This document shows, one piece after another, positions 2,334 through 12,128 of a stretch of 64,000 nucleotides of DNA (the first letter of the stretch is position 1; every line of letters starts with the position of its first letter). Where the stretch lies: IMG/VR virus record IMGVR_UViG_3300034357_000765. One strand, given 5' to 3'. The position numbers and the translations under genes were made by a program. The notes beneath the pieces were generated by a model that had not been told where the DNA came from, did no database searches, and saw only the letters and a program-made list of their open reading frames with translations. The stretch comes from a virus (lineage: Duplodnaviria; Heunggongvirae; Uroviricota; Caudoviricetes).

Positions 2334-5300
2334 ATGCCTAATAAGATTTCAAATAGCCAATTAAAAGCCGGATTTTTCCACTCACTTGGAAAGTTCTTTT
2401 CAGAAGATGCCCAAATACCTGGTGCGGAGCTTTATAAAAGTGCACATAATGTTAGATCGACAGAGGTTTGGATGGATATCATACCTTTTGCAACAACAGG
2501 TGCTGCAGATGCTATAGTGGCTGCCAATCCAACAATACTAAGGAAGATTAACGCTGGGTATTTGTATCCTTTACAATTTTCAAATTATCAAACTTGGTTT
2601 TTAGATTTTGGAGATCCTACATGGGCAGGATCTGGATTTAATCCTTCTAATCAATGGGCAAAACCTCTTATAAATCCTACTGACGTTACTGATGCGACCG
2701 GTCTTCCATCTAATGGTTATGAGTTTAAAATGCTTGGTAGAAACGGACTAAATTCTATTAGTTACACAAGTACTTCTTATGATGTTGACTATTTTTCAGG
2801 ATTCGTAAGATTTGATATTGGAAAAACTCCTATAGATTTAGGAAATGGATTGGGTTTTACACTCAGTAAAACTGGTCTTGAGGGTGCCGGTGATAAGTTG
2901 GCATATATTAGAAATAATGCTACTTGTGGACCAAGAGCCACTGCATATCAATACATAGGACAAAGACTTTCTAACTATAATTTTAGTGGAGGTGCTACTG
3001 GTGCTACTGGTTCATCTGCATATGATGTTTGGATTTATAATGGTGGTGTAGGAACTGAAATAGACTTTTTGGAATCTCTTAAAGGTGCTACTGGTGCTAC
3101 AGGAAATGATGGTATTCAAGGTACACATGGTACTTCAGGAACTTCAGGTATTAATGGAACTTCAGGAATCAATGGAACTTCTGGAACATCTGGTGAGAAT
3201 GGTGATAAATATAGATATCAATTTTCAACTACTCTCAATTTATCATCTTTTCCTACTACTCTTACTATTGGACTCGGACTTGCTTATAGTCCTGCACAAT
3301 CTATTATAATAGGTTTTGATGGTACTAAATATGTCGAGGCTATTGTTACATCATACAATCCTGGAACAGGTGTTATAACCTATACGATAAGTACTACGGT
3401 GGGTGCTGGTTCACACACTGGTGATTGGACAGTGAATCTTGCAGGTGCATCTGGTGGTGATGGATCTTCAGGAACATCAGGAGTAAATGGTGTTGATGGA
3501 ACTTCAGGAACTTCAGGGGTAAATGGTGTTGATGGAACATCTGGAACTTCAGGTGTTGATGGAACATCAGGAACATCTGGAACTTCCGGTGTAAATGGAA
3601 CTTCTGGAACAACTGGAACTTCGGGTACTACGGGAACTTCAGGAACTTCAGGTATTAATGGTATAAACGGGGTTTCTGGTGTTGCAGGTAATAACGGTAC
3701 GTCAGGAACAACAGGAACTTCTGGAACAAGTGGCGTAAACGGAACATCAGGAACATCAGGATTTACTGGTGCTAATGGAACATCAGGAACTTCTGGAACA
3801 ACAGGAACTTCTGGAACTACGGGTACTTCAGGTACTACGGGTACTTCGGGTACTTCAGGTGTAAATGGAACTTCAGGAACTTCTGGAATCAATGGAACTT
3901 CAGGTACTACGGGTACTTCAGGAACTTCTGGAATCAATGGAACTTCAGGTACTTCTGGAATCAATGGAACTTCCGGAACTTCTGGAATAAACGGAACATC
4001 AGGAACATCAGGAATAAACGGAACTTCTGGAACTTCTGGAATAAACGGAACATCAGGAACATCAGGAATAAACGGAACATCAGGAACATCAGGAACTTCG
4101 GGAATAAATGGAACTTCAGGAACAACAGGAACATCTGGAACTTCAGGAACAACAGGAACATCTGGAACAACAGGAACATCGGGTACTTCTGGTGTAAATG
4201 GAACGTCAGGAACTTCTGGTACAAGTGGAATCAACGGAACATCTGGAACAACAGGAACTTCAGGAACAACAGGAACTTCAGGAACAACGGGAACTTCAGG
4301 AACAAGTGGATCTTCAGGAATTGATGGAGTACCTGGACCAAATACTTTATTCTATGAATTAGGTGGTTCTCCATTGGGAGAAGTAGGAACTTGGGACACT
4401 AATAATAATGCAGATCCAACACTTGTTAATACAATCTATATAAGTAAGACTTCTATGCTTGGTCATGATGGTGGTGTTGCTACTACAAACAATGCAACAA
4501 CTTGGCTTTCTTATATAGCAGTCAATGGATTCATACAGATTTGGAATAGTGACGACGCGTCATTGTTTTCTATCTTTAGAGTATCCGTAATAAGTGCACA
4601 GGCCACATACTATCAATTCACGGTGACATATGTCGTAGGAAATGGTGCATTCCCTACACATGATGTTGCAATATCATATGTAAACAATGGTACATCAGGA
4701 AGTACAGGAACTTCGGGTGTCAATGGAACATCAGGAACTACGGGAACATCAGGAACTTCTGGAATCAACGGAACATCAGGAACTACGGGAACATCAGGTA
4801 CAAGTGGAATCAACGGAACTTCTGGAACTTCTGGTAGAAACGGAACATCAGGAACATCAGGAATAAACGGAACATCAGGAACATCAGGAATAAACGGAAC
4901 ATCAGGAATAAACGGAACTTCTGGTGTCAATGGAACATCAGGTACTTCTGGTATTAATGGAACATCAGGGACAAGTGGTATTAATGGAACATCAGGGACA
5001 AGTGGTATTAATGGAACATCAGGAACTTCTGGAACATCAGGTATTAACGGAACATCAGGAACAAGTGGTGTCAATGGAACATCAGGTATCAATGGAACTT
5101 CGGGTACTTCTGGAATCAACGGTACATCAGGAACATCAGGTATCAATGGAACATCAGGTACATCAGGTAGAAACGGAACATCAGGAACGTCTGGTATCAA
5201 CGGAACATCAGGAACGTCTGGTATCAACGGAACATCAGGAACTTCTGGTGTAAATGGAACTAGTGGTATCAATGGAACATCAGGAACTTCTGGAATCAAT

Positions 5301-11242: not shown

Positions 11243-12128
11243 ATATGTAGTTTTTCAAATAGAAGGAGGTATTGGAAAGAACGTTGTATCTACAGCGGTC
11301 GTAAGAGCAATATCTAAAAGTTTTCCAGATAGGAAAATAATAATAGTAACCGCATACCCTGATATTTGGGAATGCAATCCTCGAATTTATCGAATTTATC
11401 AATTCGGACAAATATCTTATTTTTACAATGATTTCATCGACGGAAAAGATACTATTCTTTTTCTACATGAACCATACAGACACCAAGACTACATCTTTAA
11501 AACAAAACACATCACTCAGTTATGGTGTGAACTTTGTGGTGTTGAATGGGATGGAGAGAAACCAGAACTGTACTTCACAAAATTAGAGTCCGATTTTGTA
11601 TCTACTCTAATAAACAAAGACAGACCTATCTTTATGATACACCCATTCGGTGGATCGGAAGGTCAGGCTCACAAATACTCTTGGGCTAGAGATATGCCAC
11701 CATCTTTGGCACAGGATGTCATAGATTATATGTCTAAAGATTATAGAGTTATTCAGGTAAAAAGACAAGACCAGCTTTCGTTGAATAATGTAGAATATCT
11801 TTCTCTTAACGCTAGACAATTGGCACTTTCTTTATTAGAGTCTGATAAAAGATTCTTTATAGATTCTTATATGCAACATGTTGCAGCATCTTTATCATTA
11901 CCATCTAATGTTCTTTGGATTGCAAACTCTCCAAACACACTTGGATATTCTATACACAACAACATAGAATGTGAGTTTGAAAAAGGAAGCTTAAAGAATA
12001 GTGTATACGAACCATACGATATATTAGGAGATCCAATTCAGTTAGCAACACCACCAAATGTATTGTTTGATTCAAAACAGATAATATCAAAAATAAAGTA
12101 TATGTTGCCACAAAAGAAGGATATGTAA
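11235..12128 (+). CDS. glycosyltransferase family 9 (heptosyltransferase-like, GT-B fold) protein
   Basis: N-terminal VVFQIEGGIGKNVVSTAVVRAISKSFPDRKIIIVTA resembles the GT9 ILIxRLSALGDVVLTTP...YPDAEI start. The C-terminal half (HPFGGSEG...RVIQV...LSLNARQLALSLLESDKRFFIDSYMQHVAASLSLPSNVLW) resembles the GT9 donor-binding half. Confidence 0.5.
   Translation: MDKYVVFQIEGGIGKNVVSTAVVRAISKSFPDRKIIIVTAYPDIWECNPRIYRIYQFGQISYFYNDFIDGKDTILFLHEPYRHQDYIFKTKHITQLWCELCGVEWDGEKPELYFTKLESDFVSTLINKDRPIFMIHPFGGSEGQAHKYSWARDMPPSLAQDVIDYMSKDYRVIQVKRQDQLSLNNVEYLSLNARQLALSLLESDKRFFIDSYMQHVAASLSLPSNVLWIANSPNTLGYSIHNNIECEFEKGSLKNSVYEPYDILGDPIQLATPPNVLFDSKQIISKIKYMLPQKKDM

Follow-up and report, generated by a model that had tools for sequence, protein, structure and literature searches.

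Positions 2334-12128 of the 64,000-nucleotide stretch of DNA analysed here (the window) make up a module of virion-fibre genes in a huge phage, the host of which is probably a member of the Bacteroidota. Within this module, a glycosyltransferase-like protein of GT9 fold (hereafter GT) is encoded next to a predicted beta-helical repeat fibre, and we tentatively favour, at a little short of an even chance, the reading that it glycosylates fibres in the manner of the bacterial TibC/TibA heptosyltransferase system. A glycosylation role is reasonable because the fold resembles GT9, the gene is part of a fibre operon and glycan-tailoring enzymes are adjacent or fused to the GT in its relatives. To that extent, the dedicated virion-glycosylation module proposed in the initial annotation is supported, while collagen as the substrate and the PEAT tail as a conserved part of the module are not supported.

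The block appears to comprise two predicted transcription units, one holding the gene of a giant collagen-like protein (2155 aa; 2334..8801, + strand) and the other the genes of the beta-helix fibre, a small PEAT protein and the GT, because promoter-like motifs and terminator-like hairpins split it. The promoter-like motif TTTAATATATAC is present at 2290..2301 (+), 33 nt ahead of the collagen giant gene and with a terminator-like hairpin (2218-2252) just upstream of it; a second exact copy at 8856..8867 (+) precedes the fibre gene (8911) by 44 nt. The collagen gene is followed by a terminator-like hairpin with a 12-pair stem and a TTTTTT tract (8809..8836, +), and the fibre-PEAT-GT unit is closed by a bidirectional terminator-like hairpin (A7-GAGAGC-ATTT-GCTCTC-T7; 12170..12199), as read from the sequence. 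Throughout the window, 11 matches to the motif with at most one mismatch were obtained against 1.5 expected (none of 100 shuffles reached 11), with copies located 15-92 nt upstream of gene starts; no copy precedes the genes at 10809 or 11235. Furthermore, the start codon of the GT gene (ATG at 11235) is held in the 3' arm of a hairpin (11209..11243, +; -18.4 kcal/mol), and comparable start-codon hairpins of different sequence occur in the related lineages L082, L004 and L006 and are absent in L003 and L005. The GT and PEAT genes had been assigned to one transcription unit with a fibre gene; this holds for the beta-helix fibre, which had not been described, while the collagen giant appears to form a unit of its own.

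The fibre of the second unit (626 aa; 8911..10791, +), the conserved neighbour of the GT gene, is built of 26 repeats of about 17 aa with the consensus NTFIGxxAGxxNTTGxx (nt 9214-10635) and is predicted to fold as a right-handed beta-helix. Structural neighbours of its model (monomer, mean pLDDT 71) include the glycosylated adhesins EtpA, Ag43, TibA and HMW1. N-x-S/T sequons, counted as a test of HMW1C-type N-glycosylation, are not enriched in the 626-aa protein (13 observed vs 16 expected).

The 297-aa GT (11235..12128, +) displays a GT-B fold which is closest to GT9 structures, with WaaC and WaaF among the top structural matches. The GT9 resemblance asserted in the initial annotation is thus borne out at the level of the fold and not as a Pfam match for the window protein. 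Profile searches, named there as the means of refutation, gave a borderline outcome: Pfam and NCBIfam searches with the window protein returned no match (the Pfam GT9 profile misses it), while Pfam GT9 weakly matches 5 of 26 relatives (best E = 1e-4), and one fused relative passes the gathering cut-off with 22.9 bits vs 22. Alignment to WaaF and WaaC together by hhalign yielded E = 1.4e-4 at a probability of 52%. At the donor site, K147-Y-S-W aligns with K192-H-W and I-D210-S-x-x-Q-H215-x-A-A with V-D261-T-G-L-S-H266-L-T-A-A of WaaC/WaaF; D210, S211 and H215 do not vary in the 26 diverse relatives, while the invariance of K147 is confined to the closer ones (alignment A1). The glycine loops are likewise invariant across the family, which diverges to 25% identity, and C98 is the sole invariant Cys in the 26 relatives. 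In the 52%-probability alignment, the GT9 catalytic base (Asp13 in WaaC, Asp110 in TibC) falls on the invariant Lys15 of GGxGKN, and therefore canonical GT9 chemistry is not guaranteed. Sequence searches of the PDB with the GT, whether with the protein alone or with a profile, gave only a spurious endoglucanase match, which was discarded. Compared with WaaC, WaaF and the Veillonella GT9 protein 3tov (CAZy GT9, PF01075), the phage GT keeps the donor motifs K-x-W-P and D-[ST]-x-x-x-H-x-x-A-A, but it has GGxGKN in place of the N-terminal G-D catalytic motif and a shorter C-terminal region, PF01075 finds no match and the gene lies among viral fibre genes instead of an LPS core cluster. No sugar-nucleotide synthesis genes, those of the heptose pathway included, were found among the window ORFs scanned; the nucleotide sugar could be supplied by the host pool.

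On sequence comparison, the GT belongs to a large, essentially phage-restricted and unannotated family of about 1100 clusters. A scan of bacterial genomes from 185,579 species with alignment A1 (alignment A2 being too divergent) yielded two family matches, both on contigs of Bacteroidota MAGs with the same fibre-GT-sulfotransferase context. Among 18 dereplicated GT lineages from viral contigs, 12 encode a beta-solenoid repeat fibre directly upstream of the GT in the same orientation, and 15 encode one within the locus; no recognised repeat fibre is directly upstream in six, and three further lineages carry other fibre-like proteins (1179-2006 aa) upstream. The repeat-fibre carriers include Pelagibacter phage HTVC112P, whose GT is 25% identical. 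A sulfotransferase adjoins the GT in 10 of the 18 lineages, and fusions to GT25 or FkbM methyltransferase domains are seen in some relatives; neither a sulfotransferase nor a second GT nor further repeat fibres were found in the 64-kb window. A comparison of the GT phylogeny with fibre type gave no clean signal of co-evolution, types F1 and F2 being mixed across GT clades. The consistent linkage of the GT in related phages, to the neighbouring repeat fibre and not to collagen, suggests that such phages may glycosylate their receptor-binding fibres.

Under the proposed mechanism, the cytoplasmic GT would bind a nucleotide sugar late in infection via its conserved GT9 donor site. Ser and Thr side chains in the repeats of the beta-helix fibre, which is co-expressed with the enzyme, would then receive the sugar, either ahead of fibre assembly or in its course. 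A parallel may be drawn to the GT9-fold enzymes TibC and AAH, which glycosylate the beta-helical adhesins TibA and AIDA-I. In these bacterial autotransporter heptosyltransferase (BAHT) systems (TibC/TibA and AAH/AIDA-I, also acting on Ag43), a cytoplasmic enzyme and a long beta-helical repeat adhesin are encoded adjacently in the same operon (mechanism in PMC4358343). As far as the genes tell, the phage arrangement is alike, with the GT adjoining and co-oriented with a fibre whose predicted fold resembles those of TibA, Ag43 and pertactin. Nevertheless, several differences are evident: the phage GT is shorter (297 vs 406 aa), it is without the extra domains and the conserved Cys4 iron finger of TibC, dodecamerisation elements were not found in it, and the place of the catalytic Asp110 of TibC is taken by Lys15 (PMC4358343 for the TibC features). 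Moreover, the fibre repeat of 17 aa, the carriage by a phage instead of Enterobacteria, and the sulfotransferase, GT25 and FkbM partners set the present system apart from the BAHT systems, to which such partners are foreign.

The collagen-like proteins are, as had been described, poor in Pro, with three Pro in 252 + 84 Gly-X-Y triplets. The 2155-aa protein (Pfam Collagen, PF01391, E = 3e-100) contains four uninterrupted Gly-X-Y runs of 14, 100, 85 and 53 triplets (aa 251-292, 371-670, 786-1040 and 1120-1278; nt 3084-3209, 3444-4343, 4689-5453 and 5691-6167, +), which are separated by globular spacers, two of them (aa 293-370 and 1041-1119) being 49% identical; the C-terminal 877 aa are not collagen-like and include DUF2793 (Pfam E = 2e-9). 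Its 252 triplets include 146 GTS, 38 GIN, 20 GVN and 15 GTT; Thr is found at X in 163 (65%) and at Y in 19, Ser at Y in 152 (60%), while Pro occurs twice and accounts for 0.4% of X/Y positions. The second protein (811 aa; Pfam Collagen E = 9e-35) has 84 triplets (58 GTS, 15 GVD; one Pro) in runs of 37 and 47 (nt 62642-62974 and 62015-62437, -). Its gene had been placed within 2334-12128; it is instead located about 49 kb further on, at 60839..63274 (-), and no glyco-genes were seen adjoining it. The 2155-aa protein has its PHROG matches among tail-fibre families, and PHROG families of this kind match the collagen-like fibres at E = 1e-48 to 1e-89.

The shaft of the 2155-aa fibre may be pictured as proline-free G-T-S and G-I-N collagen-like segments with small globular knobs in between. 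By analogy, these segments, whose triple helix is itself predicted from sequence, probably need no enzyme; they may be held by polar hydration networks of Thr, Ser and Asn along with trimerising domains at their flanks, an explanation put forward for other prokaryotic collagens without hydroxyproline (hydration network, PMC8968730). A sequence search of the PDB with the collagen runs brought up no solved GTS helix free of proline, the matches being animal collagens and a Pro-containing 'spindle/axial fibril' (8zxl), on which a literature search found nothing. Long uninterrupted Gly-X-Y runs and flanking, presumably trimerising globular domains are shared with phage and prophage collagen-like tail fibres and with the bacterial proteins Scl, BclA and EPclA, as is the lack of hydroxyproline machinery. 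However, bacterial collagens carry 19-31% Pro in X and favour Pro in X and Thr in Y, as opposed to Thr in X and Ser in Y in the present protein (PMC8968730), which, with 252 triplets in four blocks, is also very long in comparison with known collagen-like fibres.

The 128-aa PEAT protein (10809..11195, +) consists of an N-terminal domain of about 80 aa and the (PE[AV]T)7 tail already recognised in the initial annotation, in which one of the seven units is PEVT and which is encoded by a 12-nt tandem repeat (nt 11079-11162, +). Its N-terminal domain is homologous to tail-less 83-aa ORFs of L002, L003 and L008 (E = 1e-16), and the relative in L082, which is 89% identical, has three PEVT units. 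A further similarity of this domain to 77-79-aa ORFs preceding the GT in other lineages was dropped (hhalign E = 0.067 over 13 columns). Judged from these relatives, in which 7, 3 or 0 copies occur while the GT stays 65-89% identical, the tail is variable and no conserved part of the module.

Other explanations of the GT need to be weighed against fibre glycosylation. It is rather unlikely that the GT and its partner enzymes serve to remodel the host envelope by modifying LPS, LOS or capsule (the receptor glycan), so that superinfection is blocked or progeny do not stick to debris; the GT would then be found beside a receptor-binding fibre since both genes follow the receptor. Most of the characterised GT9 enzymes have the LPS core as their substrate, WaaC and WaaF are among the top structural matches, and the gtr seroconversion genes of P22 adjoin its tailspike gene. 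Furthermore, GT25 is called 'LPS biosynthesis protein' in Pfam, FkbM methyltransferases and sulfotransferases are typical glycan-tailoring enzymes, all three partners fit LPS or capsule modification as well as fibre modification, and some lineages carry the GT and a sulfotransferase without an upstream fibre. Nevertheless, the GT gene is without a promoter-like motif of its own and is placed inside a fibre operon with structural genes, and such timing is a better fit to a change made to the virion than to envelope remodelling. Bacterial genomes also hardly ever contain the family, in contrast to typical LPS genes of host origin, and the Asp which activates the LPS acceptor in WaaC is replaced according to the 52%-probability alignment. 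A non-catalytic GT9-fold protein, acting as a tail-fibre assembly chaperone or structural adaptor which kept the fold and lost transferase activity, is improbable. The Lys aligned with the catalytic Asp would suit it, as would the start-codon hairpin, which suggests tightly limited or coupled expression, and fibre chaperones are classically encoded in the slot directly after a fibre gene; an Alteromonas tail-fibre paper on a 'chaperone cap' proved unrelated. However, the invariance of the donor-binding residues and glycine loops in so divergent a family argues against loss of activity, and a chaperone would hardly be expected to be fused or adjacent to glycan enzymes of active type.

Glycosylation of the collagen itself, as originally proposed, would have the GT modify Thr/Ser of the proline-free Gly-X-Y triplets, with the sugar stabilising the triple helix and the PEAT protein belonging to the same module; we consider this improbable. 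The collagen giant is indeed encoded immediately upstream on the same strand, several further phages (L002, L003, L005, L021, L031 and L069) have proline-free G-[TS]-S collagens in the neighbourhood of the GT, and GT25, to which some relatives are fused, is the family in which CAZy places the collagen galactosyltransferases of animals. Glycosylation of Thr stabilises some collagens, for instance BclA and a worm cuticle collagen (PMC3368898, PMC8968730), though most prokaryotic collagens fold without modification (PMC8968730). The analogy to glycosylated GXT repeats does not carry over, as the acceptor in BclA-type proteins is Thr at Y (PMC8968730, PMC3368898) and the predominance of Thr in X and Ser in Y represents the opposite register. 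Against a collagen substrate, a collagen gene is within 10 kb of the GT in only 4 of the 15 lineages assessable for it, compared with a repeat fibre directly upstream in 12 of 18; the collagen giant forms a separate predicted transcription unit, the 811-aa gene has no GT near it, and the PEAT copy number changes while the GT is conserved. Under fibre-directed glycosylation, the collagen fibres may be regarded as possible additional targets and not as the conserved one.

To our knowledge, mycobacteriophages are so far essentially the only phages for which glycosylation of the virion by enzymes of the phage has been documented, and such glycosylation is not taken into account when receptor-binding proteins are modelled or engineered. 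For Che8-type mycobacteriophages, glycosylation of structural proteins of the virion by phage-encoded glycosyltransferases has been proposed or shown (Freeman et al., 2023, as cited in PMC11256854); the glycans there are on the major capsid protein (PMC11256854), the glycosyltransferase genes are near the 3' genome end instead of in a fibre operon, and the family is probably different. Extending the favoured reading, it is possible, though doubtful, that phages of several lineages (huge Bacteroidota phages, pelagiphages and others) use a GT9-fold family with Lys in place of the catalytic Asp to glycosylate beta-helical, and perhaps collagen-like, fibres, with adjacent or fused enzymes extending, sulfating or methylating the glycan in many of them. 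If true, this family would be previously unrecognised and would represent a phage counterpart of the autotransporter heptosyltransferase systems, producing glycan-coated tail fibres and offering a compact tool for glycosylating proteins in the cytoplasm. The recurrence of a proline-free G-[TS]-S design among the collagens is flagged alongside it. Should the family decorate tail fibres, fibre glycosylation, sulfated and methylated glycans included, would be widespread in aquatic and huge phages and could bear on how hosts are recognised, on the solubility and protease resistance of the fibres, and on recognition by immune systems or grazers.

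The predicted structure and remote alignments point to a fold and a donor site of GT9 type, combined with a putatively non-canonical acceptor or catalytic loop, in the 297-aa protein encoded at 11235-12128 (+) (hereafter GT). The GT9 similarity proposed in the initial annotation stands at the level of fold: the AlphaFold model built from 30 homologues is confident (pLDDT 86, pTM 0.85), and Foldseek ranked 3tov at the top (8e-13), followed by WaaF, WaaC (both LPS heptosyltransferases) and TibC (a bacterial autotransporter heptosyltransferase, BAHT); the best GT-B protein other than the GT9 matches scored 11.6 in the structure search. 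It does not extend to Pfam or NCBIfam, where GT found no match; a PDB sequence search returned nothing relevant, and the sole library match by sequence was PHROG 8954 (function unknown; 1.4e-5). Among 26 diverse relatives, five matched Pfam GT9 weakly (best E = 1e-4), and one fused relative reached its gathering score.

Alignment of the family by hhalign with WaaF and WaaC (reference sequences confirmed against PDB entries) was full-length (E = 1.4e-4, probability 52%). At this probability, K147-Y-S-W is paired with K192-H-W and I-D210-S-x-x-Q-H215-x-A-A with V-D261-T-G-L-S-H266-L-T-A-A, the motifs so matched being those of the GT9 donor site, and the invariant Lys15 (motif GGxGKN) falls at the catalytic Asp13 of WaaC/WaaF, whose TibC counterpart is Asp110 (PMC4358343). 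D210, S211 and H215 are invariant in 26/26 diverse relatives and K147 in the closer ones.

The family comprises 1122 clusters at 50% identity (E <= 1e-3), and all 120 members listed from the first search are annotated at most as 'hypothetical protein', with no precomputed Pfam domain. Elsewhere it is nearly absent, occurring in 3/50,697 deposited phage records and in 2/185,579 species genomes, both Bacteroidota MAG contigs of viral-looking context. Comparison of 80 IMG/VR loci and Pelagibacter phage HTVC112P, with neighbour genes typed by local HMMs and loci dereplicated at 70% GT identity into 18 lineages, placed a repeat fibre directly upstream of GT on the same strand in 12 lineages and anywhere in the locus in 15; three further lineages carry other fibre-like proteins (1179-2006 aa) upstream. 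These GT-adjacent repeat fibres are of two kinds, a 17-aa NTFIG/NSNFLG type and a YadA-head-like xxIGGGxxNxxxG type. Furthermore, a sulfotransferase (Pfam Sulfotransfer_3, 8e-16) adjoins GT in 10/18 lineages, being ~270 aa and directly 3' of the GT gene in many phages (loci L009-L081), and three proteins fuse GT to GT25 and three to an FkbM methyltransferase (proteins listed for these partners: P0244, P0251, P0255, P0259, P0324, P0371). In loci L002, L003 and L008, the gene next after GT encodes a DDD-motif protein of 248 aa without Pfam match. The window itself holds no sulfotransferase, GT25/FkbM fusion or 248-aa DDD protein.

The window (G+C ~34%, several giant proteins) includes a 5-kb stretch with 71% nucleotide identity to uncultured phage genomes of 634-642 kb, and is interpreted as a portion of a huge-phage genome. 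Its phage-encoded SmpB (Pfam 3e-50; 12548-12991), thioredoxin (13560-13904), ClpP-like head maturation protease (15230-15796), NAD-dependent DNA ligase (17537-19381), dephospho-CoA kinase (CoaE; 35031-35651), Sir2 (39298-40023) and DnaJ (54142-54849), all on the minus strand, form a set typical of huge phages; a sigma factor is encoded at 15822-16421 (-). On the plus strand, a 618-aa ORF without family match (141-1997, its frame open to the window's left edge) and a 56-aa ORF (2034-2204) are followed by the 2155-aa collagen giant (2334-8801), the 626-aa repeat fibre (8911-10791), the 128-aa PEAT protein (10809-11195) and GT; minus-strand genes convergent with this block start at 12198.

The motif TTTAATATATAC is present in 11 copies at <=1 mismatch vs 1.5 expected, a count reached by 0/100 shuffles; its recurrence ahead of gene starts points to a promoter specific to the phage and perhaps active late. 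Exact copies precede the collagen gene by 33 nt (2290-2301) and the 626-aa fibre gene by 44 nt (8856-8867), others lying ahead of genes at 19448 (19416-19427) and 40102 (40069-40080); copies with one mismatch lie at 16526-16537 (-), 27750-27761, 35702-35713, 38440-38451 (-) and 48783-48794. The genes so preceded include four very large ones; the adjoining giant ORFs of 2888 aa (40102-48768, +) and 1780 aa (48798-54140, +), each with a promoter-like motif ahead, had no PHROG match at E <= 1e-5. No copy lies ahead of the PEAT or GT gene. Together with terminator-like hairpins at 2218-2252, 8809-8836 and 12170-12199, these positions predict one transcript for the 626-aa fibre, the PEAT protein and GT, while the collagen giant appears to be a separate transcription unit; the earlier placement of GT in one unit with a fibre gene would thus hold for the 626-aa fibre and not for the giant. 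In addition, a strong hairpin (11209-11243) pairs upstream sequence with the start of the GT gene, ATG and first codons included. Such hairpins (-16 to -21 kcal/mol over 60 nt), of differing primary sequence, are shared by four close relatives (window, L082 at ~9965-10010, and L004 and L006 just ahead of their GT starts) but are absent in L003 and L005; GT translation may be coupled or repressed in this way.

The 626-aa fibre, a predicted beta-helix, consists of 26 repeats (consensus NTFIGxxAGxxNTTGxx) and has >3000 homologues, abundant in Bacteroidota, many of them 'tail fiber domain-containing proteins' with Peptidase_S74 or type IX secretion (T9SS) sorting domains. Since the repeat occurs in Bacteroidota surface proteins as well as in the phage fibre, it is a shaft module common to both. 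The 17-aa NTFIG domain (homologues P0129-P0240) is very frequent on Bacteroidota chromosomes, also with CBM96 or phage depolymerase C-terminal domains, and the Peptidase_S74 of NTFIG-bearing proteins is an intramolecular chaperone domain. Structural neighbours of the fibre model include the adhesins EtpA (17.2), pertactin (16.0), Ag43 (14.8), TibA (13.0) and HMW1 (12.6), of which EtpA, HMW1 and Ag43 are glycosylated by dedicated enzymes. The same holds for TibA, whose enzyme is TibC, and for AIDA-I (PMC4358343).

The PEAT protein does end in seven PE[AV]T units, as had been described. Its N-terminal domain (~80 aa) is homologous only to tail-less 83-aa ORFs of L002/L003/L008, and in L082 (GT 89% identical), where the gene order is that of the window (1858-aa collagen giant, 610-aa fibre, 119-aa small protein, 288-aa GT), the tail has three PEVT units. 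The tail, absent or shorter in relatives, is a fast-evolving low-complexity appendage and not a conserved component of the glycosylation module in which the PEAT protein had initially been placed.

The reported scarcity of proline in the Gly-X-Y triplets was confirmed. The giant (Pfam Collagen, 3e-100) has four uninterrupted runs of 14, 100, 85 and 53 triplets (252 in all; GTS 146, GIN 38, GVN 20, GTT 15) with 2 prolines; the 811-aa protein is likewise collagen-like (84 triplets; GTS 58, GVD 15; 1 Pro) and lies far from the GT block with which it had been grouped, at 60839-63274 (-). A 76-aa ORF (58817-59047, -) ~1.8 kb downstream of the latter, on the same strand, has a short run of 6 triplets. 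Two spacers of the giant, aa 293-370 (nt 3210-3443) and 1041-1119 (nt 5454-5690), are duplicated ~80-aa globular knobs (49% identical; blastp E = 2e-8 to 4e-12); the third (aa 671-785) is unrelated to them, and the two collagen-like proteins have no non-collagen domain in common. Long ORFs wholly inside the repeats, either antisense or in another frame (3380-4234, 4613-5515, 5579-6421 and 62014-62436 on the minus strand; 62053-62508 on the plus), are taken to be putative repeat by-products, not genes. Nearly Pro-free G-[TS]-S runs also occur in the phage loci L005 (2688 aa, 428 triplets, 4 Pro), L021, L031 and L069; in the giant of L082, 228 triplets are spread over runs whose lengths differ from those here.

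The fold, motif conservation, synteny and fusions are observed here, together with the predicted operon signals, while any enzymatic activity, donor sugar, acceptor and biological role of GT are inferred. Tentatively, and at somewhat less than an even chance, it would act as BAHT enzymes do and glycosylate the beta-helix fibre expressed alongside it. Remodelling of host LPS or capsule, the former being the substrate class of the structural matches WaaF and WaaC, is unlikely. Glycosylation of the collagen, as originally proposed, is improbable: collagen lies within 10 kb of GT in only 4/15 assessable lineages. According to reviews, bacterial collagens carry Pro mostly at X and Thr mostly at Y and, without hydroxyproline, fold via hydration networks, glycosylation being usually absent (PMC8968730, PMC3368898). 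The window collagens instead place Thr at X and Ser at Y, and the analogy with BclA-type collagen, with Thr at Y, is therefore weak. A non-catalytic chaperone, with Lys15 at the position of the catalytic Asp, is likewise improbable; the sulfotransferase, GT25 and FkbM partners argue for the family as a working glycan-building enzyme.

Neither collagen-like fibres of phages nor GT9 enzymes are new in themselves. Within the literature searched, a phage-restricted, unannotated GT9-fold family in which Lys replaces the catalytic Asp, the systematic location of its genes downstream of beta-solenoid fibres, and the sulfo-, methyl- and glycosyltransferases with which it is paired appear to be previously undescribed, and fibre-directed glycosylation would be its likeliest role.
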